Below, in pieces: positions 22,197 to 36,290 of a DNA stretch of 64,000 bases (the stretch's first letter is position 1; each line of letters opens with the position of its first letter). Source of the stretch: Hyphomicrobiaceae bacterium. GTDB taxonomy: Bacteria; Pseudomonadota; Alphaproteobacteria; Rhizobiales; Hyphomicrobiaceae. The notes below the pieces were generated by a model. It saw only the letters and a list, made by a program, of their open reading frames with translations, had not been told where the DNA came from and searched no databases. A program made the translations under genes and the position numbers. The stretch spans positions 6,405 through 70,404 of the forward strand of contig JANRIO010000011.1 in assembly GCA_033764875.1 (NCBI GenBank). Reading direction: 5' to 3'.

Positions 22197-22319
22197 CCCG
22201 CTGCACCTTTAGCGCAAGCCTCGCCCATGCGCGACCTCGATCCGTTTGATTTTCGTCAACGCCGCCCATAGGCGCCGGCGCTATCTGGACATCCGAGGTT
22301 GCTGAGAGGAGATCTAGCC

Positions 22320-22814
22320 ATGGCAAACATTGAGCCATCCAAGCAGGGCCGCCCCGCACTTCGCTCGCGTGATCTTTTGGGCTCCCTGCGCGACGAGATG
22401 GATCGCGTGTTCGAGCAGTTCGATCGGGGCTGGGGCCTGCCGTCCCTGTTCGCCGGCGCCGGCGGAGCCGCTGCCGTAGTCCCGCAGTTCGACATCCGCG
22501 ACGACGGCAAGTCGCTCACCATCGAGGCCGAGCTGCCGGGCGTCGACGAGAAGGACGTCACCGTCTCGCTTGCCGACGGCGTCCTCGTCGTCAAGGGCGA
22601 GAAGAGGCAGGAGCGCGAGGAGAAGAAGGACAACTACTACCTGTCCGAGCGCGCCTTTGGCAGCTTCGAGCGTGCGCTCCGCATGCCCGACTGGATCGAC
22701 GACAGCAAGGTCGAGGCGCACTTCGACAAGGGCGTCCTCAAGATCATGGCGCCCAAGAAGCCCGACGCGGTCAAGTCCGAGCGCCAGATCGAGATCAAGA
22801 AGCCGCAGGCCTGA
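22320..22814 (+). CDS. Small heat-shock protein, Hsp20/alpha-crystallin family
   Basis: Alpha-crystallin domain (FDIRDDGKSLTIEAELPGVDEKDVTVSLADGVLVVKGEK...SFERALRMP...GVLKI). GAGAGGAG SD lies 8 nt before the ATG at 22320. Confidence 0.9.
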   Translation: MANIEPSKQGRPALRSRDLLGSLRDEMDRVFEQFDRGWGLPSLFAGAGGAAAVVPQFDIRDDGKSLTIEAELPGVDEKDVTVSLADGVLVVKGEKRQEREEKKDNYYLSERAFGSFERALRMPDWIDDSKVEAHFDKGVLKIMAPKKPDAVKSERQIEIKKPQA

Positions 22815-24193: not shown

Positions 24194-24270
24194 CGGAGCG
24201 TAGCGCAGCCTGGTAGCGCACCTGCTTCGGGAGCAGGGGGTCGGGAGTTCGAATCTCCCCGCTCCGACCA
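24194..24270 (+). tRNA. tRNA-Pro (anticodon CGG)
   Basis: Cloverleaf read by hand: acceptor CGGAGCG/CGCTCCG, D-arm GCGC/GCGC, anticodon stem CCTGC/GCAGG with loop TTCGGGA, T-arm GGGAG-TTCGAAT-CTCCC, encoded CCA. Confidence 0.9.
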
Positions 24271-24360: not shown

Positions 24361-25290
24361 TCATTCGGGACCTCCCTGAAGCGCAGATGCCAGATAGACA
24401 GCAAGAACGGCGAGCAGCATGGCTCCGCGCCAACGGTCGATAATGCCGGAGCGGGGCGGGTACGTGATGGCGACTGCGACGAGGCCGAGAACGAGAGAAG
24501 GGGCGGCGGCGACAAAGGCGACATCGATGGGCGTAATCGTCGCCGCCACGCCGATGATGAACAGCCCGTTGAAGATGTTGCTGCCGAGAACGGTACCCAG
24601 CCCGACCTCGTCATGACCGCGCACGCGCGAGATGATTGCCGTGGCCAGCTCGGGCACGGATGTGCCGATGGCCACGATGGTGGCCCCGATCACGAACGCG
24701 CTGAGGCCGAAGGCTTGGGCGATGCCGGTCGCGCCGAGCACGATCAGGTTGCCGGCGGCGATCAGCAGGGCGAGGCCGATGGCGCTCTCCACGATCGCAC
24801 GCACGGGCCGCGTCTCGCCGAGCACCTCCGGCGCCGCGCTGCGCTCCGAGCGCGCCTCAAGCGCCACCGCGACCAGCCAGACTGCAAAGCCCGCCAACAG
24901 CATGACACCCTCGATCCTCGAGAGATGGCCGTCCACGAGCAGTGCCCCAATCACGACGCTGACCAGCAGGGCGACGGGAAAGTCGCGCCGGACATTGCTG
25001 CGGCGCGCCGTGATCGGCGCGATGAGAACGGCCAGTGCCAGGATCAGTGCCACGTTGATGACGTTGCTACCGAGCGCGTCGCCGAGCGAGATCTGGGGGG
25101 CCCCGGCGAGCGCCGAGTTGATCGCAACCGTCAATTCCGGGCTCGACGTGGCAAAGGCTGCAACCGTGGCGGCGATGATCCCCGGCGAGATGCGGGCGGC
25201 CCGCGCCAGCCCAATGGTGCCGCGCACGAACAGCTCTCCGCCCGCGCCTGCGCAGACGAGGCCGATCAGCATCACCAGGTACATGTTCAT
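24361..25290 (-). CDS. Ca2+/Na+ antiporter, CaCA family (YrbG-like)
   Basis: Two internal alpha-repeats (GDALGSNVINV and GTVLGSNIFNG) in a roughly 10-TM protein. Confidence 0.8.
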   Translation of the reverse strand: MNMYLVMLIGLVCAGAGGELFVRGTIGLARAARISPGIIAATVAAFATSSPELTVAINSALAGAPQISLGDALGSNVINVALILALAVLIAPITARRSNVRRDFPVALLVSVVIGALLVDGHLSRIEGVMLLAGFAVWLVAVALEARSERSAAPEVLGETRPVRAIVESAIGLALLIAAGNLIVLGATGIAQAFGLSAFVIGATIVAIGTSVPELATAIISRVRGHDEVGLGTVLGSNIFNGLFIIGVAATITPIDVAFVAAAPSLVLGLVAVAITYPPRSGIIDRWRGAMLLAVLAVYLASALQGGPE

Positions 25291-25483: not shown

Positions 25484-27169
25484 TCACAGATAGGCAAGAA
25501 TGAGATAGGCGCCCAGCATCACGGTCGTCCAGAATGCCATCGTGCCCGTCGGCCATGTGCGGCCGAAGACCCCCCCGGGTCCATGGTGCCGATGAAGGCC
25601 GCCATTGATCGCCTTCCCGGCACGGCCGATCCACGAGACGAGGCGGATCCAGGCGCGCCCGCTCCTGTCGTCGATCCCGTGTGCCACACCGCGTCCCAGT
25701 CGCCGCCACAGCCAATCGACATCGAGCGTGATCGTCATCGTGCGCTTGAGCATGCCCAGCATCAGGAAGAATGCGAGCCCCGAGAACAGCAGCAACTGCA
25801 GCTGCCCGAGGACGTGGCTCGCCGTGTAGGGCACGTAGTCGACCTTGAATGGCAGCAGCGCGTAGAGCGGGTCGGGGTAGACCCCGATCCCGATGCACAG
25901 GATCGAGCAAAGGATCATCGCGGCGCGCATGTTCCAAGGCGGGTCGTCCGGCCGCAGGCCGGAGTCCTTCTGGAAGAACACGAACCACGGGAACTTGATG
26001 CCGGCGTGCAGGAACACGCCCGCCGAGCCGGCCGCAAGCAGGAGCCAGACGCTCGCCAGATGCTGCTGCGCCGCGCCCTCGCTGATCATGGATTTCGAGA
26101 TGAAGCCAGAGGTCAGCGGGAAGGACGAGATCGACAGCGCGCCAATGATGCCGCAGATCGTCGTGACCGGCATCGTGCGGAACAAGCCGCCGAGGTCGGT
26201 GCATTTGCGCTTGCCCGTCATGTAGAGCACGGAGCCGGCCGACATCAGCAGCAGCGCCTTGTAGATGATGTGCGTGAAGGCGTGTGCAGCGGCGCCGTTG
26301 AGCGCCATCTCCGTGCCGATGCCGATCCCCGCCACCATGAAGCCGACCTGGTTGACGATCGAGTAGGCAAGGATGCGGCGCATGTCGTTCTCGAGGATCG
26401 CGTAGATGATCCCGTAGAGCATCATGGCGAGGCCGACCCAGATCAGCAGCTCCGTGCCGGGAAAGCCCCTCAGGAGGACATAGACCGCCGTCTTCGTGGT
26501 GAATGCCGACAGGAACACCATGCCGGACCAGGAAGCTTCAGGATAGGCGTCGGGAAGCCATGCCGAGAGCGGTGTCGCCGCGGCGTTGATCAGGAACCCG
26601 GCCAGGATCAGGCAGCGCGGGAGCGTGCTGAGGTCCATCCTCTCGAAGCTGGTCGAGCCCGTTGCAGATATCTCGCCGGCCAGTCCTGCCATGAGCAGCA
26701 CGCCGCCGAACATATGCATGACGGCATAGCGCAACCCGGCGGCGCGGGCGTTGGGTCCGCTCGACCACACCACGAGCGTGGACGCGATCGCCATCAGCTC
26801 CCAGAAGACGAACACGGTGATGAGATCGCCGGCAAGGCAGACGCCGATGGCGCTGCCGGAGTAGACGAAAGCGGAGGCCAGCTCGATCGTCCTCGGCTGA
26901 TTGAGTGCAAACAGCGCGCCTGCGAGCGCCATCAGCGCAAACACCACGGCAAACAGCCGCGAGAGCTTGTCGCCTTTGACGAGGACCAGGTCCTGCCCGA
27001 GGAATTGCGACTTGAGTGCCACGCCATCCGGGACCTGCCAGACCAGCCACAAGGTCAAGGCTGGCAGCAGCAGCAGCGCCAAGGCGCGCCAGCTGCCTTT
27101 CAGCAGCGGCAGCAACAGCCCGCCGGCCATCAGCAGCAGCGCGGGCGGGAGGAGAATGCTACTCGTCAT
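25484..27169 (-). CDS. mrpD: Mrp/Nuo antiporter-like subunit, third MrpD/NuoN-type paralog (with a C-terminal extension)
   Basis: Proton-conducting membrane transporter fold (VFVFWELMAIASTLVVW...). Last gene of the coupled cluster. Confidence 0.75.
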   Translation of the reverse strand: MTSSILLPPALLLMAGGLLLPLLKGSWRALALLLLPALTLWLVWQVPDGVALKSQFLGQDLVLVKGDKLSRLFAVVFALMALAGALFALNQPRTIELASAFVYSGSAIGVCLAGDLITVFVFWELMAIASTLVVWSSGPNARAAGLRYAVMHMFGGVLLMAGLAGEISATGSTSFERMDLSTLPRCLILAGFLINAAATPLSAWLPDAYPEASWSGMVFLSAFTTKTAVYVLLRGFPGTELLIWVGLAMMLYGIIYAILENDMRRILAYSIVNQVGFMVAGIGIGTEMALNGAAAHAFTHIIYKALLLMSAGSVLYMTGKRKCTDLGGLFRTMPVTTICGIIGALSISSFPLTSGFISKSMISEGAAQQHLASVWLLLAAGSAGVFLHAGIKFPWFVFFQKDSGLRPDDPPWNMRAAMILCSILCIGIGVYPDPLYALLPFKVDYVPYTASHVLGQLQLLLFSGLAFFLMLGMLKRTMTITLDVDWLWRRLGRGVAHGIDDRSGRAWIRLVSWIGRAGKAINGGLHRHHGPGGVFGRTWPTGTMAFWTTVMLGAYLILAYL

Positions 27170-27416
27170 AGTAGGTATCCGGCCGCTTCAGGATCACACC
27201 CAGCGCTTTCGCGAGCAGCACCAGCCCGACGCAGGCCCCCAGGCCGTACCAGGCGGCAAACCCGAACAGTGCATCGAGACGGAAGTGGGGATGGTGCGGC
27301 ACGACCAGGTCGAGCAGCACGAGCACGGCCAGCACCAGCAGCCCGCCCGTCCACAGCAGCCTGATCGTGCTCGGCCGCACCAGCCAATGGTCGCCATCCT
27401 TGTCGGTCATGCTCAC
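27159..27416 (-). CDS. Small (85 aa) two-TM membrane protein embedded in the Mrp-like operon
   Basis: ATGA overlap with the upstream D-like gene and an 11-nt overlap with the downstream one. Two hydrophobic helices. No family recognised. Confidence 0.55.
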   Translation of the reverse strand: MSMTDKDGDHWLVRPSTIRLLWTGGLLVLAVLVLLDLVVPHHPHFRLDALFGFAAWYGLGACVGLVLLAKALGVILKRPDTYYDE

Positions 27417-28921
27417 CGTCCCATCATCATCTCGGCCAGCGTCAGCGGTATGCCGGCGAGGAAGAACAGCGCCACGGTCATCAGCGCCGTGGCCGACAAG
27501 GCAATGACGATCGGCAGCGGCGCCTCGCCGTGGTCGCGATGGCCATGGGGGTTGGGCGCGGCTCCGGCTGCATACGCCTCAAGCGGCCGCGGCGCGACGA
27601 AGAAGGCGCGGTACACGATCGGCAGGAAATAGGCTGCGTTCAGGATCGTGCTTGCGATGATGACCCCGACCGGGAGCCACTGGCCCGTCTGCATCGCCCC
27701 CTGCAGCATGAACCACTTGCCGAGGAACCCGGCGGTCGGGGGCAGCCCGATCATGCCGAGGGCTCCGATGGCGAACGCGGTCATGGTCCACGGCATCACC
27801 CTGCCGATGCCGTCGAGCTCGCTGATCTCGGTCTTGTGGGCGGCGGTGTAGATGCTGCCGGCTGCGAAGAACAGCGTGATCTTGGCGACGGCATGCGCCG
27901 CGATGTGCATGGCCGCGCCGACGGCGGAGATGGGCGTCAGAATGGCGGCGCCGAGGACGACATACGACAGTTGCGACACCGTCGAGTAGGCGAGGAGCTT
28001 CTTCAGGTTGTCCTGCCGCAGCGCCACCAGCGAGGCGACGATCACAGTCGCGCCGGCCGCGACCACGAGCCACTGTGCCGCGCCGGCATTGGCGAGCGTC
28101 TCGATGCCGAACACGTAGACGATCACCTTCAGCACGGTGAACACGCCGGCCTTGACGACCGCGACCGCGTGCAGGAGCGCGCTCACCGGTGTCGGCGCCA
28201 CCATGGCGGCCGGCAGCCAGAAGTGGAACGGCATCAGCGCCGCCTTGCCGATGCCGAACACGTAGAGCGCCAGCAGCAGGCCGAGGAGACCGGCGCCGGC
28301 TGTACCGGCAAGAATGCCGCCCGGCTTGAAGTCCAGCGTCCCCGCCAGCACGCCCGTCGCGACGATGGCCGGCAGCAGCAGCACCATCGACGTGCCAAGC
28401 AGCAGCATCAGGTAGACGCGGCCGGCGCGCATCGCCTCCCGCGTCGCCTTGTGCGTGACGAGGGGGTAGGTCGAAAGCGTCAGCGCCTCGTAGAACACGA
28501 ACAGCGTGAACAGGTTCTTCGCGAAGGCGATGCCCATGGTCGCCGCGATGGCCACCGCAAAGCAGACGTAGAATGAGGTCTGTCGCGGCTCGTCGTTGCC
28601 GCGCATGTAGCCGATCGAGTAGATCGAGTTGACGATCCACAGTGAGCCGGCCACCAGGGCGAACAGCATGCCGAGCGGCTCGACCTTGAAGGCGAGCTCG
28701 AGGCCGGGCCCGACGCGGAGCGGCGTCAGCTCCGGGCGCGCGCCGGCGAGCACATGCGGCAGCAGGCTCCAGACCACGAAGGCGAGCTTGGCTGCCGTGA
28801 TGACCGTGACGGCCTCTCGCAGGTTCGGCACGCGGTGGAAGAGCGGCAGCAACAGCGCCGCGCCCAACGGCAGGATCAGCGCCAGAGCCAGCAGCAGCTC
28901 GGGGGTGAGCGCAGGGATCAT
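27413..28921 (-). CDS. mrpD: Mrp/Nuo antiporter-like subunit, second paralog (MrpD/MrpA-core/NuoL-M-like)
   Basis: LFVFYEALTLSTYPLV motif. ATG at 28921 within the 1025-aa track ORF. ATGA overlap with the upstream gene. Confidence 0.75.
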   Translation of the reverse strand: MIPALTPELLLALALILPLGAALLLPLFHRVPNLREAVTVITAAKLAFVVWSLLPHVLAGARPELTPLRVGPGLELAFKVEPLGMLFALVAGSLWIVNSIYSIGYMRGNDEPRQTSFYVCFAVAIAATMGIAFAKNLFTLFVFYEALTLSTYPLVTHKATREAMRAGRVYLMLLLGTSMVLLLPAIVATGVLAGTLDFKPGGILAGTAGAGLLGLLLALYVFGIGKAALMPFHFWLPAAMVAPTPVSALLHAVAVVKAGVFTVLKVIVYVFGIETLANAGAAQWLVVAAGATVIVASLVALRQDNLKKLLAYSTVSQLSYVVLGAAILTPISAVGAAMHIAAHAVAKITLFFAAGSIYTAAHKTEISELDGIGRVMPWTMTAFAIGALGMIGLPPTAGFLGKWFMLQGAMQTGQWLPVGVIIASTILNAAYFLPIVYRAFFVAPRPLEAYAAGAAPNPHGHRDHGEAPLPIVIALSATALMTVALFFLAGIPLTLAEMMMGR

Positions 28922-30414
28922 TTGAGCCCCCCGAGCAGGGTCTTGGCTGCAGCCGCCGCAATCTCGACGCTGACCCGGGTGTCGATGCCGAGCCCGATCG
29001 TCGCCGCGCCGAGGAGCAGGATCGGTGCGAGCATGGACAGCGGCGGATCCCGCGCTTCGGCGGCACCTGCCGGCGGATCCCGGAAATAGGCCGCCTCGAC
29101 GATGCGTCCGATGTAGGCGACGGCGACCAACGAGCTCGCCACGACGACGAACACCAGCGGCCAGTAGCCCTTCTCGAGCGCGCCCAGCGCGAGGTACCAT
29201 TTCGAGATGAAGCCCGCCGTTCCCGGAACGCCGATGAGGCCGAGCCCCGCGACCACAAAGGTCGCCATGGTCAGCGGCATCTTGCGGCCCAGCCCGGCGA
29301 GGTCGCTGATGCTGACCGCCCCCACCCGGTAGATCACCGCGCCCAGGGCCATGAACAGGGCCGCCTTCATCACCGCGTGGTTCAGGAGGTGAACGATGCC
29401 GCCGGTCAGCCCGCTCTGGTTGGCCAGCGCGATGCCGAGTGTGATGTAGCCGATCTGCGCGACCGACGAGTAGGCCAGCGCGCGCTTGGCGTTGTCCTCG
29501 AACACCGCGCTCAGCGACGCAAGCAGCATCGCTGCAACCGAAAGCACCAAGAGGATATTGGCAACCGGCAGCGTGTTGAAGGTGATGGCCACCCCGAACA
29601 CCGAGAAGAACAGCCGGATCAGCAGATAGACCGCCACTTTCGTCGCCGTTCCCGCCAGGAACACGGTCGCCACCGACGGCGCATAGGTGTAGGCGTTGGG
29701 CAGCCAGAGATGCAGCGGGAAAAGCGCGAGCTTCAGACACACGCCGACGGTGAGGAACGACAGCGCCGCCAGGATGGGGCGCGCGAACTCCGGTGGCGCC
29801 GTTGCTAGGCGGCTGGCGATGTCGGCGATGTTGAGGCTGCCGGTGACAAGGTAGAGCAGGCCGATGCCGATCACGTACAAGGTCGCCCCGATCGTGCCGA
29901 CGATCAGGTACTGATAGGCTGCCAGCACCGCCCGCCGATGCCGGCCCATGGCGATCAGCACGTAGGTCGACAGCGACGAGATCTCGAGGAAGACGAATAC
30001 GTTGAAGGCATCGCCCGTCACCGTGATGCCGAGCAGGCCGGTCAGGCACAGCAGGTACATGGTGTAGAACCACGCCTGCGCATGCGAATCGATCTCCGAG
30101 GCCACGCTCTTGCGGGCGTACGGCATCAGCACGGCGCCAACCGACGTGACCAGTATCAGCACGAAGGCATTGAGGGCATCGACGCGATACTCGATGCCCC
30201 ACGGCACGGCCCACCCGCCCATGAGGTAGGAGATCGGCTGGCCGGCCTCCAGCACCTTGGCGAGCAGCCACCAGGAAACGCCGGCAGAGCCCCAGGTCGC
30301 AACCAGCGCCGTGCCCCAGGCCGTCGTGCCTCGCCGGAAGAAGGCGGAGATAATGGCAGCGAACAGGGGGATGAGCACGGGCAGGACGGGAAGATGCAGT
30401 TCGAGCGCCTTCAT
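28918..30414 (-). CDS. mrpD: Mrp/Nuo antiporter-like subunit, first MrpD/NuoN-type paralog
   Basis: VFVFLEISSLSTYVLIAMG and about 14 TM helices. Confidence 0.8.
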   Translation of the reverse strand: MKALELHLPVLPVLIPLFAAIISAFFRRGTTAWGTALVATWGSAGVSWWLLAKVLEAGQPISYLMGGWAVPWGIEYRVDALNAFVLILVTSVGAVLMPYARKSVASEIDSHAQAWFYTMYLLCLTGLLGITVTGDAFNVFVFLEISSLSTYVLIAMGRHRRAVLAAYQYLIVGTIGATLYVIGIGLLYLVTGSLNIADIASRLATAPPEFARPILAALSFLTVGVCLKLALFPLHLWLPNAYTYAPSVATVFLAGTATKVAVYLLIRLFFSVFGVAITFNTLPVANILLVLSVAAMLLASLSAVFEDNAKRALAYSSVAQIGYITLGIALANQSGLTGGIVHLLNHAVMKAALFMALGAVIYRVGAVSISDLAGLGRKMPLTMATFVVAGLGLIGVPGTAGFISKWYLALGALEKGYWPLVFVVVASSLVAVAYIGRIVEAAYFRDPPAGAAEARDPPLSMLAPILLLGAATIGLGIDTRVSVEIAAAAAKTLLGGLK

Positions 30415-30776
30415 ATCTCCCCGTCCCTGGCGAAAATCTCGTCCTCCTCGATCGTGCCGTAGGCCTCGTGAATGCGGACGACGAGTGCAAGCCCGAGCGC
30501 CAGCGTGGCGACGCCGACCACGATGGCCGTCAGGATCAGCACGTGCGGCAGCGGGTTCGAGTAGACCTTGAAGGCTGGATCGATGATCGGGGCCGTGCCG
30601 CCGATGATCTTCCCCGGCGCGACGTAGAGCAGATAGACCGAGGTCTGGAACAGCGACAGCCCGACCAGCTTCTTGATCATGTTGCCGCTGGCGATCACGA
30701 CATAGAGCCCGGCGACCATCAGCAGGATCGTGATCAGGTAGTTGTAGTGGGCGATGATCTCGCGCAGCAGCGTCAT
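30411..30776 (-). CDS. mrpC: Mrp antiporter subunit C (NuoK-like)
   Basis: 121 aa, three TM helices, LSLFQTSVYLLY. 4-nt overlaps on both sides. Confidence 0.75.
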   Translation of the reverse strand: MTLLREIIAHYNYLITILLMVAGLYVVIASGNMIKKLVGLSLFQTSVYLLYVAPGKIIGGTAPIIDPAFKVYSNPLPHVLILTAIVVGVATLALGLALVVRIHEAYGTIEEDEIFARDGEI

Positions 30777-31192
30777 GCCCGCCTCCGCCCGGCGAACGCG
30801 TAGAAGATCGCGGTCATGGTGGACGCCACCGTGATCAGAACCCCCGTCTCGATGATCAGGATTCCGAGCGCGTGCCCGCCCGCCGGATCGGCGGCGAGCA
30901 CACCGTAGTCCAGGAACGAGCGGTCGTTGAGCATCGCCGGCAATCCGGCGCTGGCATAGATCAGCACGCCCAAGGGCACGAGCCGCTCGACGACACTTTG
31001 CGGAAAGACGCGCTTGGCCGCGTCGGCACCGAAGATGATGGCGTACACGATCACCATCCCGGCCGTGATCACGCCGGCCTGGAAGCCGCCGCCCGGGCCG
31101 TACTCGCCGTGAAAGTGCACGTACAGCGCAAACAGCAGAATGAATGGGAGGATCAGCTTGACGCCGATCCTCAAGATCACATCATGCCTCAC
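30773..31192 (-). CDS. mrpB: Mrp antiporter subunit B
   Basis: MnhB signature HGEYGPGGGFQAGVI. Confidence 0.8.
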   Translation of the reverse strand: MRHDVILRIGVKLILPFILLFALYVHFHGEYGPGGGFQAGVITAGMVIVYAIIFGADAAKRVFPQSVVERLVPLGVLIYASAGLPAMLNDRSFLDYGVLAADPAGGHALGILIIETGVLITVASTMTAIFYAFAGRRRA

Positions 31193-31746
31193 GGCTGCTC
31201 CCCCCGCTCGTCGCCATCTTGCTTGCGTCGCCGCCCTCTGAGCAGCAGCATGACCCCGATCCCGGCCGTGAAGATCACCGTCGTCTCGCCCAATGTGTCA
31301 TAGCCCCGATAGTCGCCCAGCACCGAGGTGACGACGTTGGGCACGTGCGTTTCCCGGATGGTCTCGGCCAGGTAGCGCGGCACCGTATGCTTGTGGATGG
31401 GCGCGTCGGCCGTACCGAACGGCGGCAGACCCCAGGTGCCCCAGACCAGGGCCGCGCCGACCACGGCCGAGACGAACAGAGGAAGCACGACCGTGCGGGG
31501 CCTTGGATACTCGCGCGACTTGGTCAGGTGCAGCGTCGCCAGGAGCACGACCGTGGAGATGCCCGCGCCGACCGAGGCCTCGGTCATGGCCACGTCGACG
31601 GCGTCGAGCACGATCAGGACGCTTGCCATCAGAAGGCTGTAGATGCCGGCGAGGATGACGACGCCGAACAGGCTGCGCTGGGCGACGATGGCAAGCGTGA
31701 TCGCGGCAAGCAGCGTCAGCAGCACGGCATTGATGAGGGTTTCCAT
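31189..31746 (-). CDS. DUF4040-type membrane protein (equivalent to the MrpA C-terminal / MbhD-E-like segment)
   Basis: METLINAVLLTLLAAITLAIV...VDVAMTEASVGAGISTV...VLGDYRGYDTLGETTV, typical of DUF4040/MnhB-N. ATG at 31746 in the track ORF 31189-32151. Confidence 0.7.
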   Translation of the reverse strand: METLINAVLLTLLAAITLAIVAQRSLFGVVILAGIYSLLMASVLIVLDAVDVAMTEASVGAGISTVVLLATLHLTKSREYPRPRTVVLPLFVSAVVGAALVWGTWGLPPFGTADAPIHKHTVPRYLAETIRETHVPNVVTSVLGDYRGYDTLGETTVIFTAGIGVMLLLRGRRRKQDGDERGEQP

Positions 31747-32114
31747 CAGGCGGTCTCGCGATCGCTGGGCGGCTCCGCGGTGTCGCTGCCGGCGCTCCCG
31801 CGACGATCCTCGTGAAGCAACGGGTCCACGCCTTCGTGCAAGGCGGCCTGGGCCAGCGCGTGCGTCACGACGGGCCCGACGAAGAAGAGCAACGCGACCA
31901 GGAACCCAAGCTTGACCGCCACGAGGCTGAAGCCCGCCTGCAGCATCAGGCCGCCCAACAGGAGGCCGGCGCCGAGCGTGTCCGTGACGCTTGCCGCGTG
32001 CATGCGCGTGTAGAGATCCGGCATGCGCACCAGACCAAGCGCCCCGACCACAACGAATGCGCTGCCCGAGAGGATCAGGATCCAGCTGAGGGCATCCAGG
32101 ACCAGGACGCTCAT
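31746..32114 (-). CDS. mrpG: Mrp antiporter subunit G
   Basis: MnhG signature RMPDLYTRMHAASVTDTLG. Confidence 0.8.
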   Translation of the reverse strand: MSVLVLDALSWILILSGSAFVVVGALGLVRMPDLYTRMHAASVTDTLGAGLLLGGLMLQAGFSLVAVKLGFLVALLFFVGPVVTHALAQAALHEGVDPLLHEDRRGSAGSDTAEPPSDRETA

Positions 32115-32389
32115 TTGGCCTCCTTGTCCGCATCGTAGGCAAGATCGCCATGGCGGAAGAACTTCAGCACCGCCAGCGTCGAGATCACGTTGAGCAGGCC
32201 GTAGGTAATGCCGATGTCGAGCCACTCCGGCCGGCCGGTGAGAAAGCCGACCACGGCGAGCAGCAGGATCGCCAGCGTGCCCACCGAGTTGCCGGCGAGC
32301 ACCCGGTCGAACACCGTCGGACCGCGGATCGCCCGCACCACGGCCAGAAGCAGGGCGATCAGGATCGCGACGGCTGCAGCAGCAAACAT
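32111..32389 (-). CDS. mrpF: Mrp antiporter subunit F
   Basis: 92 aa, three TM helices, GPTVFDRVLAGNSVG motif. Confidence 0.75.
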   Translation of the reverse strand: MFAAAAVAILIALLLAVVRAIRGPTVFDRVLAGNSVGTLAILLLAVVGFLTGRPEWLDIGITYGLLNVISTLAVLKFFRHGDLAYDADKEAK

Positions 32390-32889
32390 CAAGCCCCTCC
32401 TTCGAACCTCTTGACGCGGGCATCCATGCCTCCGGCTTCCAGATCGAGCGCGCCGTCGCGGACAAGCGCGTGCACCGTGAGGCGGTTGCCTCGCACGCCG
32501 GTGGTGATCGTGCCTGGAGTGAGGGTGATCGAGTTCGCGTAGGTCGCAATGCCGGCCGAGGTCCGCTGGCTCGCCGTCACCACCGTCATGGTCGGCGAGA
32601 TCGGCAGTCGGGGATGAAGAATGATCCTCGTCACCGCCCACGCCGACTTGGCGATCTCCCAGACGAGCCAAGGGAAATAGGTCAGCGCCTGCCCGAACAG
32701 GTGGGCCGGATGCCCCTCGTCGTCGACCACCTTCATGCGGGCCCCGACGAGAACGCACAGCAGCGAGCACGCCGCGCCGATCCCGATCAGTAGCGGAGTG
32801 TAGTGGCCGGACAGGGCCAGCCAGAATGCGAACAGCAAGACGCCGAGACTGACGTAACGCATGAGCCCTCCCCGTATGCCAGAGGTCAC
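32389..32889 (-). CDS. mrpE: Mrp antiporter subunit E (first gene of the operon)
   Basis: MnhE-like FWLALSG...YANSITLTPGT. Possible alternative start at 32862 (MRYVSLG). Confidence 0.75.
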   Translation of the reverse strand: MTSGIRGGLMRYVSLGVLLFAFWLALSGHYTPLLIGIGAACSLLCVLVGARMKVVDDEGHPAHLFGQALTYFPWLVWEIAKSAWAVTRIILHPRLPISPTMTVVTASQRTSAGIATYANSITLTPGTITTGVRGNRLTVHALVRDGALDLEAGGMDARVKRFEGGA

Positions 32890-33205
32890 GTCCGGCGTGG
32901 CCTCTGGGACGTACCCTGCCTAGACCTGGGCAGCGGGAGCCTCTCCCCCATCTCCGCAGCGGTTCGCTCCCTGACAATCTCTAGGCCAGGAATACTGCGT
33001 GGGCAACTGATCCATCTGGCGGGTTGCTGGGTCCCACGTCCAGGATTGGGTCGCCGGCAATTGGACCCGGCCCCGACCATCTCCACAGCCCGAATAAGGC
33101 CGCCAATAGTCTGCCCATCGGCAGTGCGATGCTCCATCGAAACCCGTCCGAGGGGGACCGCGAAGGTCCTTGCCCTCATCGGTCCGTCTGGGAGAGTGTG
33201 CAAGC

Positions 33206-33940
33206 ATGAAGCTCGATGATCCGAAGGCGACTGCCCTGTTCCTCGATCTCGATGGGACGCTGATCGACATCGCACCGACGCCGGACAGCGTGCACGTTCC
33301 CGATGGCCTTGCCGCGATGCTGGGGGAGCTGACACGCCAGCTCGACGGGGCGCTGGCGATCGTGACGGGGCGCACGATCGCGGATGTCGACCGCTTCCTT
33401 GCGCCGTTGACGCCGGTGGCGGCAGGCGTGCACGGCGCGGAGCTGCGTCACGGGCCTGGCGGTGAGATCACGGTCAGGGCGGATCCGATCGATGCCGGGG
33501 TGGCCCAGTCGGTGCGGCGGGTGGCAGCCGAGCACGCCTCCGTCATGGTCGAGACCAAGCATGCCTCCATCGCCGTGCACTACCGCCAGGCGCCGTCGCT
33601 TGCCCCGGTTCTGGAGGTCGCGCTCGCGCGCATCCTCGACGATGGCCCGGACCATCTCATTCTCGCGCACGGGCGCCAGGTCTTCGAGATCGTACCCCGG
33701 CACGTTTCCAAGGGCGCGGCGCTGCAAGCGATCATGGATCTGCCGGCCTTTGCCGGTCGGCGGCCCGTCATGATCGGCGATGACGTCCCCGACGTGCCGG
33801 CGCTGGAGGCGGCGATCCGTCTCGGCGGCTCGGGTCTGCGGGTGGCCGGCGAGCACTTCTCCCCCGCCGAGGCCGACTTCATGGGGCCGGTCGAGGTTCG
33901 CGCCTGGCTCCGGGCCCTCTCGGAAGGGCTCGCACGATGA
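33206..33940 (+). CDS. otsB: Trehalose-6-phosphate phosphatase (HAD family)
   Basis: LFLDLDGTLIDIAP (HAD motif I), IVTGR, and GDDVPD motif. Immediately upstream of otsA. Confidence 0.85.
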   Translation: MKLDDPKATALFLDLDGTLIDIAPTPDSVHVPDGLAAMLGELTRQLDGALAIVTGRTIADVDRFLAPLTPVAAGVHGAELRHGPGGEITVRADPIDAGVAQSVRRVAAEHASVMVETKHASIAVHYRQAPSLAPVLEVALARILDDGPDHLILAHGRQVFEIVPRHVSKGAALQAIMDLPAFAGRRPVMIGDDVPDVPALEAAIRLGGSGLRVAGEHFSPAEADFMGPVEVRAWLRALSEGLAR

Positions 33941-34004
33941 CGGTGCCGCCATCGCGCGGCCTTGCCGGCGGCGGCACCGGTGGCCAGGCCAGGGAGGGCG
34001 AGTG

Positions 34005-36290
34005 ATGGCGCGCCTTGATCGTCTCCGCACCCGCTTGCTTGCGCTGGCGCGACGCGCGGGCGCCGACCGCTTCTGGCGCAACCCGCTCACCCGCTACGCC
34101 GCGTTGGCGCTGGCTGCAGCCCTCATCATGATTGCCGCCATTGCGCCGCTGGCGTCCGTGATGGTCGAGGGCTGGTCGAACCGCGACATCGAGTTGCGCG
34201 CCCGCCTCGTGTTTCGCTCCATTCGCGACCAGGTGGCGGTCGGCATTGCCGCCAAGCCCGATTTCGATCTCATCCCCTTCTTCGAGCGGCTGGCCGAGGA
34301 CGAGCGCATCCTCGCGCTGGGCTACTGCACCGATCAGGGCCAGTTGCGCTATGCGACAAAGCTGCTGCCCAAGGCCGTCACCTGCGCCAGCATCAAGCGC
34401 GACAAGAGCGACACCGTCGCCACGGTCGCCGATGCGGGCCGACGCATCCATGTCAGCGCCTTCCCCATCACGGCGGGATCCGCGACCGGGCACCTGCTGG
34501 TGTTGCACGACCTTGCCTACATCGACGAGCGCGCGAGGGAGGCGCGGCTCTATTCCGTGCTGGCCCTTGTCGGCGTGGCGACGGGCCTCGGGCTGCTGGC
34601 GGCCGCAATCTTTCTCGGCCTCATGCGGGCGTGGGCCCGCTCCATCCGCTCCGCCATCGTCGACGCACAGGCCACCGGCGGCGAGGCCGCCGGCCCCCAG
34701 CGCAGCGATTTCCCCATAAGCCGGGAGGTGCACGCCGTGCTCGCCGAGATGCGGCTCGAGCGGCGCTTCGCCGACGGCATTCATGTCGAATGGTCGCCCA
34801 AGACGTTGCACCGGCTTCTCAGGGAAGAGTTGCCCGGCGCCGAGGTGCTGGTCGTCTCGAACCGCGAGCCCTACATTCACTACCGGACCAATGGCGCAGT
34901 CGCCGTTCAGATCCCGGCCAGCGGCCTCGTCGCCGCCCTCGAGCCCGTCATGCGCGCCTGCGGCGGCACCTGGATCGCCCACGGATCTGGCAGCGCCGAC
35001 CGGGAGACGGTCGACGTGCACGACCGTCTGCGCGTCCCGCCGGCAAGCCCGGCCTATACGCTCAGGCGCGTATGGCTCACGGACGAGGAGCAGGACGGCT
35101 ACTACTACGGACTGGCCAACGAGGGGCTGTGGCCGCTCTGTCATATCGCCTTCGTGCGTCCGACCTTTCGCGAGCAGGACTGGGCGCAGTACCAGGCGGT
35201 CAACGCGCGCTTCGCCGACGCCGTCGTGGCGGAGGCCGCGACCGAGGATCCCATCGTTCTCGTCCAGGACTACCACTTCGCCCTGCTGCCGCGGATGATC
35301 CGCAAGCGGTTGCCGAAAGCCACCGTCATCACCTTCTGGCACATCCCCTGGCCGAACGCGGAGACGTTCAGCATCTGCCCGTGGCGCGAGGAGATCATCG
35401 ACGGGCTTCTCGGCAGCACCATCCTCGGCTTCCACACCCAGTTCCACTGCAACAACTTCATCGAGGCGGCCGACCGCTTCATGGAGAGCCGCATCGACCG
35501 CGAGCATTCCTCGGTCACGCTCGGTGGTCACGAGACGCTCATCCGGCCCTATCCGATTTCGATCGAATGGCCCCCGGCCGCGCTTGCCGATCAGGCTCCC
35601 GTGCGCGAATGCCGGGACGCCGTGAGGCAGCGGTTCTCGTTGCCTCCGGACGTTCGCATCGCCGTGGGCATCGAGCGTTTCGACTACACGAAAGGCATCT
35701 TCGACCGCATCCGTGCCATCGACGACCTGCTCGCGCGGCAGCCCGAGTGGCGTGGCAAGCTCGTCTTCATCCAGGCCGCCGCGCCGACCCGCAGCAAGCT
35801 CGAGGCCTACAGCACGCTGCAAGCGGAAGCGGTGCGGTTCGCCGAGGAGACCAACGCGCGCCACGCGAGCAACGGCTACAAGCCGATCCTGCTCGTCATT
35901 CGCCATCATGAGCCGGCCGAGGTCTACGAGCTGTTCCGCGCCGCCGACATCTGCATCGTCTCGAGCCTGCACGACGGCATGAACCTCGTCGCCAAGGAGT
36001 TCGTCGCCGCTCGCGACGACGAGCGCGGCATTCTCGTGCTCTCGAGCTTCGCAGGCGCCTCGCGCGAGCTGTCGGAGGCGCTGATCGTCAACCCCTACGA
36101 CACCCACGGCATGGCCGAGGCGCTCGGGCAGGCATTGCGCATGCCGGCCACCGAGCAGCGCGACCGCATGCGCCTGATGCGCGAGCTCGTCCGCCAGCGC
36201 AACGTCCACCGCTGGGCCGCCCAGATGCTGCTCGACGCGGCCCGACTGAGGAGGAGGGAGCGGGTCATCGGAGCACCTGCGGCCCGATGA
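34005..36290 (+). CDS. otsA: Trehalose-6-phosphate synthase (GT20) fused to a ~280-aa N-terminal two-TM module
   Basis: GT20 core from about aa 285 ([56 protein letters not shown]). The N-terminus has helices [23 protein letters not shown] and [25 protein letters not shown] flanking about 150 aa. Confidence 0.85.

Follow-up and report, generated by a model that had tools for sequence, protein, structure and literature searches.

The window, our name for the whole 64,000-nucleotide stretch of Hyphomicrobiaceae DNA analysed here (contig C116 of a 5.36-Mb assembly in 142 contigs), carries on its minus strand an operon of ten genes related to Mrp antiporters (25484-32862; order mrpE-F-G-A'-B-C-D1-D2-x-D3, all ten frames open). 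Mrp antiporters are free-living relatives of the ion-pumping arm of complex I, and all seven Mrp subunit families are encoded here (MrpA C-terminal/MrpB-like domain, B, C, D, E, F and G). The most likely function is that of a Na+(K+)/H+ antiporter driven by the proton-motive force (PMF), and we regard it as probable that the complex as a whole is a monovalent cation/proton antiporter with three proton channels.

The distribution of the cluster across genomes points in this direction. For 60 genomes, each representing a different family of the order, D3 and A' (a separate protein corresponding to the C-terminal domain of MrpA) were used as markers and set against canonical MrpA. The cluster was present in 24 genomes (40%) and canonical MrpA in 21; only one genome held both, 23 held the cluster alone, 20 MrpA alone and 16 neither (odds ratio 0.035, Fisher p = 2.5e-5, an indicative value given that related genomes are not independent). 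The two markers identified the same 24 genomes, on the same contigs. Given this near-exclusion, the cluster probably does the job of Mrp, standing in for the classical system in the genomes that carry it. No match to canonical MrpA (TIGR00940, at 1e-100) was found in the whole genome from which the window derives. An earlier note on this DNA, made from its letters alone, had considered the energy coupling of the cluster not obvious; its near-exclusive distribution with respect to canonical MrpA points to PMF-driven antiport.

Gene content and operon layout

The operon and its presumed promoter region comprise the following features:

32863..33169, no strand: mrpE-otsB intergenic region (otsB divergent), presumed by position only to contain the promoter
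32389..32862, minus: mrpE-like subunit, 157 aa from ATG 32862 (Pfam MNHE, 4.2e-28)
32111..32389, minus: mrpF-like subunit, 92 aa (Pfam MrpF_PhaF, 3.5e-13)
31746..32114, minus: mrpG-like subunit, 122 aa (Pfam PhaG_MnhG_YufB, 1.2e-23; TIGR01300 above cut-off)
31189..31746, minus: A', the C-terminal domain of MrpA encoded as a protein of its own (MbhD + MbhE fusion, DUF4040), 185 aa
30773..31192, minus: mrpB-like subunit, 139 aa (Pfam MnhB, 1.5e-26; NF009162, 166 bits, cut-off 120)
30411..30776, minus: mrpC / NuoK-like subunit, 121 aa (Pfam Oxidored_q2, 2.5e-21; NF005624, 128 bits, cut-off 95)
28918..30414, minus: D1, MrpD/MbsH/MbhH/NuoN-class antiporter-like subunit, 498 aa (Proton_antipo_M)
27413..28921, minus: D2, MrpA-N/NuoL-class antiporter-like subunit without lateral helix, 502 aa (Proton_antipo_N + Proton_antipo_M)
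27159..27416, minus: x, conserved small subunit of two helices, 83 aa if started at ATG 27410, 85 aa if at GTG 27416
25484..27169, minus: D3, antiporter-like subunit with transmembrane helix 15 (TM15), lateral helix (HL) and TM16, 561 aa (Proton_antipo_M; NF009310, 705 bits, cut-off 564)

Pfam and NCBIfam searches confirmed both the genes and the families of the E-F-G-A'-B-C-D-D-x-D cluster described in the earlier note, x being without a family match; curated NCBIfam cut-offs were exceeded by A', B, C, G and D3. A' combines matches to Pfam MbhD (3.7e-14) and MbhE (1.6e-09), scores 188 bits against NF009159 (cut-off 141), and maps onto approximately residues 600-790 of MrpA models.

Gene junctions are tight. 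The proposal that every junction overlaps by 1-11 nt holds for eight of them (1, 4, 1, 4, 4, 4 and 4 nt from E/F to D1/D2, and 11 nt at x/D3); at D2/x it holds only if x begins at GTG 27416, giving a 4-nt overlap, while the ATG at 27410, from which public gene calls start x (83 aa), leaves a 2-nt gap. A cluster extent of 25484-32889 had also been proposed: its lower end stands, and its upper end corresponds to an upstream in-frame GTG that would lengthen mrpE to 166 aa. We consider ATG 32862 the more likely start of mrpE, on the basis of the GGGGAGGG box upstream of it and of an alignment to MbsA that begins at residue 2.

Third-position GC content of the ten genes is typical of the host, in a window of ~69% GC. 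No match to the sigma-70 consensus was found in 32863..33169, promoter and terminator scans being uninformative in high-GC DNA. ARAGORN called a tRNA-Pro(GGG) at 31399-31477 (minus), inside the A' coding sequence; we set this call aside as most likely a false positive of GC-rich coding DNA.

The D subunits and the D2-x-D3 cassette

To place the three D proteins, a maximum-likelihood tree was computed together with the genome's own NuoL, NuoM and NuoN, canonical MrpA and MrpD of relatives, and those portions of five PDB chains that the alignments covered (partial sequences). D1, whose best solved relatives are MbsH (6.3e-63), MbhH and MrpD, was placed with MrpD, MbhH, MbsH, NuoM and NuoN. D2, which combines the N-terminal domain of NuoL/MrpA with the WLPAAMVAPTPVSALLHA motif, is sister to MrpA-N and NuoL (support 99/95); its AlphaFold2 (AF2) model (predicted local distance difference test, pLDDT, 88.6; predicted template modelling score, pTM, 0.90) comprises 14 helices, with no TM15, HL or TM16. 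D3 is closest among solved sequences to MbsH' (6u8y_X), with which it also groups in the tree (95/94), although this grouping joins two long branches. In its AF2 model (pLDDT 85.4), a helix of 46 residues (484-529) lies between TM15 (450-471) and TM16 (541-560), and the top Foldseek matches of this model (MrpA, NdhF and NuoL) are all carriers of a lateral helix.

Across alignments of ~40 sequences each, the TM5 glutamate, the TM7, TM8 and TM12 lysines and the His/Lys residues of the central axis are invariant or nearly so in all three proteins, in agreement with the earlier description of three intact antiporter-like subunits. Invariant positions are E144, K228, K259, H342, H346, K350 and K405 in D1; E145, K226, H251, K257, H343 and K347 in D2, with K402 conserved in ≥90%; and E124, K226, H296, H300, K304, K359 and K392 in D3. 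Mean column identity across distant taxa is 55-72%.

The earlier note had also stated that MrpA is missing. This is correct for a full-length MrpA, and none of the D genes (498, 502 and 561 aa) proved to be one; the parts of MrpA are nevertheless present as separate proteins: the pump core, represented by D2 through descent and by D3 through architecture; the clamp, formed by the D3 tail with TM15, HL and TM16; and the C-terminal domain, which is A'. The three "subunit D" labels used in annotation conceal three different roles.

The small protein between D2 and D3, x, consists of two hydrophobic helices with basic ends and carries the motifs HWLxRP..IR.LW, F.AW.G...C and LKRPDTYYD, but matched nothing in Pfam, NCBIfam or the PDB, even when searched with a profile. 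We considered whether x might be a relative of a solved chain (MbhI, or TM15/16 of MrpA) and rejected this, as a profile search with E-values up to 10 returned a chance match only. Its 426 detectable relatives are nearly all unnamed or labelled "hypothetical protein", with one labelled DMT-like permease, and x sits between D2 and D3 in every locus.

The same trio occurs in a second setting. Searching a plasmid collection at the protein level gave D3 relatives on 133 plasmids, most of them from Sinorhizobium, Rhizobium and Ensifer. On the S. meliloti plasmid NZ_CP141214.1 the gene order is nuoJ, nuoK, then proteins of 487 aa ("antiporter subunit D family protein"), 84 aa ("hypothetical protein") and 586 aa ("Na+/H+ antiporter subunit D"), followed by nuoM, nuoN and nuoA to nuoG. 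This is the green complex I, in which two MrpD-like subunits, the second with an HL helix, have been described as replacing NuoL (PMC9040806). Green and window proteins share 50% (D2), 39% (x) and 47% (D3) identity (BLASTP 4e-144, 1e-09 and 2e-165), and green D2 and green D3 are each sister to the Mrp-type clade with support of 100/100. Because a homologous trio in the same order is found in green complex I, with fully supported sister clades, D2-x-D3 is a single, portable evolutionary module, in which x goes with the D2/D3 pair and not with the cation module. We found no paper that names x or links an Mrp-type cluster to the green complex I cassette.

By hydropathy, the linker between TM15 and TM16 measures 47-52 residues in canonical MrpA, 69 in D3, 83 in the genome's own NuoL and 95 in green D3. 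The 26-residue step from Mrp-type to green D3 equals that reported per extra pump (PMC9040806). The D3 linker itself falls between the lengths expected if D2 lay beyond D3 and if it lay between D3 and D1, and the subunit order in the complex may be either D2-D3-D1 or D3-D2-D1.

Conservation, spread and genomic surroundings

A search with D3 against one genome per species returned at least 589 confirmed relatives, the best 80 of which were used for locus comparisons, with start codons picked by a heuristic. The order E-F-G-A'-B-C-D1-D2-x-D3 was found in every locus with enough upstream DNA (~65 of the best 80), so that the survey of gene order suggested in the earlier note shows an identical arrangement recurring over many lineages. 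Carriers include Hyphomicrobiales (Bradyrhizobium, Xanthobacteraceae, Hyphomicrobiaceae), Rhodospirillales, Burkholderiales (Hydrogenophaga, Rubrivivax) and Gammaproteobacteria, as well as metagenome-assembled genomes (MAGs) labelled Vicinamibacterales, Longimicrobiales and Flavobacteriaceae. Most junctions in these loci overlap or lie a few bases apart, and x and D3 overlap in 75 of 75. Clustering of the open reading frames in the flanks of all loci, aimed at a shared partner or regulator, yielded no family present in more than 8 loci. The arrangement of the cluster is not due to chance and, as its order is constant while its flanks vary, the ten genes form a self-contained, selected unit.

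At a broader scale, 27 of 400 sampled Pseudomonadota genomes (~7%) reach the D3 cut-off, green complex I copies included. Within the genus of the window, 5 of 24 other genomes do so, and a further one (G002) holds a disrupted copy below the cut-off; a complete, reduced genome of the order (1.4 Mb) retains the cluster. The G002 copy (L098, 8425-15863) is a ten-gene cluster in which D3, D2 and A' each match in pieces lying in different frames, reflecting either decay of distal genes or long-read indel errors. Low-scoring D3 matches in G002 and G071 were initially candidates for green complex I copies; this was rejected, both being ordinary ten-gene clusters.

Two further observations concern divergent loci. 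A second cluster lineage (L001-L004) is present in two genomes of the same genus (G016, G022) and two of the same order (G027, G031), with identities to the window of 60-67% for D2, 24-43% for x and 46-49% for D3; the x-D3 pair may either evolve much faster than D2 or have been exchanged. Just upstream of the cluster in a Burkholderiales MAG, on the opposite strand (L061, 183-3076, minus), there are weak matches of MrpC-like and D2-like type (27-31% identity), which may belong to a second, different Mrp-like set.

The following neighbours lie on the downstream side of the operon in the window:

24361-25290, minus: CaCA-type Na+/Ca2+ exchanger gene, directly downstream of D3
24194-24270: tRNA-Pro(CGG), 1.2 kb from the cluster end
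22299-22814: Hsp20

Farther downstream of D3 the genes encode a short-chain dehydrogenase/reductase (SDR), the Hsp20 protein, a cytochrome c, a thioesterase and a thiamine pyrophosphate (TPP) enzyme. On the upstream side, in divergent orientation, come otsB and otsA (trehalose; 33170-36290), followed by genes for a FadL-like porin and an aminotransferase. The CaCA exchanger, otsBA and Hsp20 resemble an ion or osmotic stress neighbourhood, which is not conserved at other loci: the neighbour genes of the window are almost never found beside the cluster elsewhere, with 3 weak matches in 80 loci for the CaCA exchanger.

No hydrogenase, Fe-S or Nuo peripheral gene occurs within 7 kb on either side of the cluster, a point made in the earlier note and borne out by annotation of the flanking genes. 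Its view of the cluster as free-standing likewise gains from the lack of conserved flanks and from the rest of the genome. The whole assembly contains six Proton_antipo_M genes, namely NuoL, NuoM and NuoN (contig C1) plus D1, D2 and D3, so that the L/M/N-type genes beyond the cluster amount to one nuo set, and the single NuoD-type gene lies on another contig as part of the nuo genes. Separately, a full NuoH gene ends contig C103 while a NuoH C-terminal fragment opens contig C1, the two sharing only 85% DNA identity; this duplication at contig ends points either to mixed strains in the assembly or to a second nuo set, of which only part is present.

Mechanism, rival readings and known systems

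The best solved relative of mrpE is MbsA (6u8y_A, 3.2e-15) and that of mrpF is MbhB (6cfw_B); E scores 59.7 bits to MbsA versus 21.7 to MrpE, and F 39.6 bits to MbhB versus 31.6 to MrpF. Both thus score higher to MBS and MBH chains than to bacterial Mrp, and the earlier remark that the gene order mirrors the archaeal Mbh/Mbs membrane arm is upheld. E has H131 aligned to MbsA H139 and a conserved NSITLTPGT motif; in F, D28-R29 is conserved, with D28 aligned to MbsB D30. MbsA H139 and MbsB D30 are parts of the proposed Na+ entry, and MbsB D36 is part of the proposed Na+ cavity, the "first negatively charged cavity" (PMC8165549). Also conserved are P81 in the third helix of G, the acidic residues D48, D51, E56, D150 and E154 of A', and the GPGGGFQAG motif of B. 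Overall, the charged residues of the channels and of the small-subunit ion path are present, with a single departure at position 34 of F.

Based on these data, we propose that the products of all ten genes assemble into a single free-standing membrane complex, which we assign to group 3 of the Mrp (CPA3) family. As in Mrp, MBH and MBS, its Na+-type cation module, together with the composite proton path next to it, would be built from E, F, G, B, A' and C, and D1 would be the MrpD-equivalent proton channel. The position of the MrpA N-terminal pump would be taken by a cassette of three proteins: D2, a 14-helix channel of the NuoL/MrpA class; x, an adaptor of two helices; and D3, a channel bearing a lateral clamp helix and a terminal anchor helix. 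PMF would drive H+ inward via up to three channels, in exchange for the export of a monovalent cation, most likely Na+; with one channel more, the exchanger would move more H+ per cation and be more strongly electrogenic. In this scheme we infer the antiport activity, its direction, ion and stoichiometry, along with the role of x and the relative order of D2 and D3.

A bolder extension, to which we give somewhat less than an even chance, is that D2-x-D3 acts as a portable "booster": two proton channels joined by x, plugged into Mrp in place of the MrpA pump and into complex I in place of NuoL, giving Mrp a higher H+ per cation ratio than in the classical system, with the Asp-to-Asn change in F marking an altered cation site. 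If so, the operon would be a natural experiment on pump number versus stoichiometry in complex-I-like machines. In genome annotation, x merits a name.

Several points weigh against the proposed antiporter. Position 34 of F is Asn in ≥95% of 66 family members, while MbhB, MbsB (D36) and the MrpF chains 6z16_F and 7d3u_F have Asp there, and N34 may mark altered cation handling or an altered site. The complementary distribution speaks for functional replacement only indirectly, related genomes being not fully independent. The ten-gene type as a whole was not found described or tested in the literature; the possibility raised in the earlier note, that this exact order is already a functionally characterised subgroup, thus does not strictly apply to the type as a whole. 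Experiments on Ehrlichia chaffeensis bear on the antiporter from both sides. In this species an F-G-DUF4040-B-C gene row is complemented by E and three D-type genes at other sites (PMC8395091); judging by the annotations and near-identical subunit lengths in that paper, these genes look like a dispersed counterpart of the operon. Partial rescue of Na+-sensitive E. coli at pH 5.5 by single genes and by the partial row counts in its favour; on the other side, the tests were of single genes or a partial set, and some raised salt sensitivity at pH 7-8 (PMC8395091).

Among the alternatives, the one that survives best, though we consider it unlikely, is that the same architecture handles another cation, exchanging K+ for H+ like rhizobial Pha1 or Ca2+ for H+ like the Mrp of Thermomicrobium roseum. 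The conserved N34 of F, replacing an Asp of the proposed Na+ cavity in aligned solved homologues, would fit such a change, K+- or Ca2+-specific Mrp systems are on record (PMC5703873), and a CaCA Na+/Ca2+ exchanger gene adjoins the cluster. This last neighbour is, however, not a conserved one (see above), the tested group 3 systems (Aphanothece, P. furiosus) behave as Na+-coupled, and ion specificity cannot be set from sequence alone.

Far less credible is the reading that, as in Mbh, Mbs or complex I, the complex serves as the membrane arm of a pump driven by redox chemistry, with the genes for the peripheral module lying at another site. The gene order and small subunits are indeed closest to MBS and MBH, and D2-x-D3 works inside a redox enzyme, green complex I. 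A redox pump would be recognised by a NuoH/MbhM anchor and NuoB/NuoD(NiFe)/NuoI-type genes in the cluster, yet none are present there or within 7 kb, nor do any recur in the flanks of relatives; NuoH/MbhM-type or NuoB/D-type genes are absent in and beside the cluster both here and in ~70 related loci. Moreover, the genome's sole NuoD-type gene belongs to its nuo genes, complex I lacks the E-F-G cation module, and a distribution complementary to canonical Mrp fits an antiporter better than a respiratory enzyme. Finally, a decaying or silent accessory island inserted beside tRNA-Pro, with no present function, would explain the patchy occurrence in the genus (D3 above its cut-off in 5 of 24 further genomes, plus the G002 copy with frame-broken D2, D3 and A' matches) and the tRNA gene 1.2 kb from the cluster end, but is scarcely compatible with ten open frames, 55-72% mean column identity across distant taxa, invariant catalytic residues and host-typical third-position GC.

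Returning to the antiporter, its gene content fits the published definition of group 3 Mrp, in which mrpA is absent and several mrpD are sometimes present (PMC8415708): there is no protein of MrpA length, three D-type genes are found, and the order E-F-G-A'-B-C-D-D-x-D is irregular. The earlier placement of the cluster outside characterised Mrp classes is thus not upheld, all the more as its first seven genes match, in order and content, the stand-alone mrpEFGBB'CD operon of P. furiosus (PF1147-53), which uses Na+ and serves pH homeostasis (PMC8415708). That operon likewise lacks mrpA and a redox module, but ends after one MrpD and is described as being without an energy-input module, whereas D2, x and D3 are added here, bringing in two further channels and the clamp of the lateral helix. 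The MBS and MBH chains against which the small subunits score best come from P. furiosus as well.

Other relatives share parts of this layout. Aphanothece halophytica mrpCD1D2EFGAB is a Na+/H+ antiporter (PMC5703873), and its published gene order is a rotation of E-F-G-A-B-C-D1-D2. Ca. Nitrospira alkalitolerans has a group 3 cluster with two NuoM/NuoL-like genes after mrpD (PMC7784846). The membrane arms of MBS (6U8Y) and MBH (6CFW) follow the same subunit order, D1 being nearest MbsH and D3 nearest MbsH', which also has TM15, HL and TM16 (with the caveat on long branches given above); in contrast to these enzymes, the operon has no MbsM/J/K/L/N-type genes and adds a third channel, D2, together with x. 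In green complex I (nuo2, Sinorhizobium plasmids), the homologous D2-x-D3, in the same order, lies between nuoK and nuoM, replacing nuoL, in a redox enzyme without E, F and G; green D3 exceeds the D3 of the window by 25 aa, and by hydropathy its TM15-TM16 linker is longer by 26 residues.

Classical group 1/2 Mrp (mrpABCDEFG; 6Z16, 7QRU, 7D3U) is built from the same seven subunit families, with D1 corresponding to MrpD, D2 grouping with the MrpA N-terminal module, D3 matching TM15/HL/TM16 and A' matching TM17-21 of MrpA. Compared to it, the operon described here has a split MrpA, three channels rather than two, the extra subunit x, E-F-G in first place and Asn for Asp in F. Its kind is known as Mrp group 3, NCBI family models exist for its proteins, and the copy in the window is an ordinary member of the type. 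That type is common (~40% of sampled families in the order), and its D2-x-D3 cassette is reused in a complex I variant. Having no redox partner, the type makes a simple test system, in which three channels are intact, MrpA is split and one small subunit is added.

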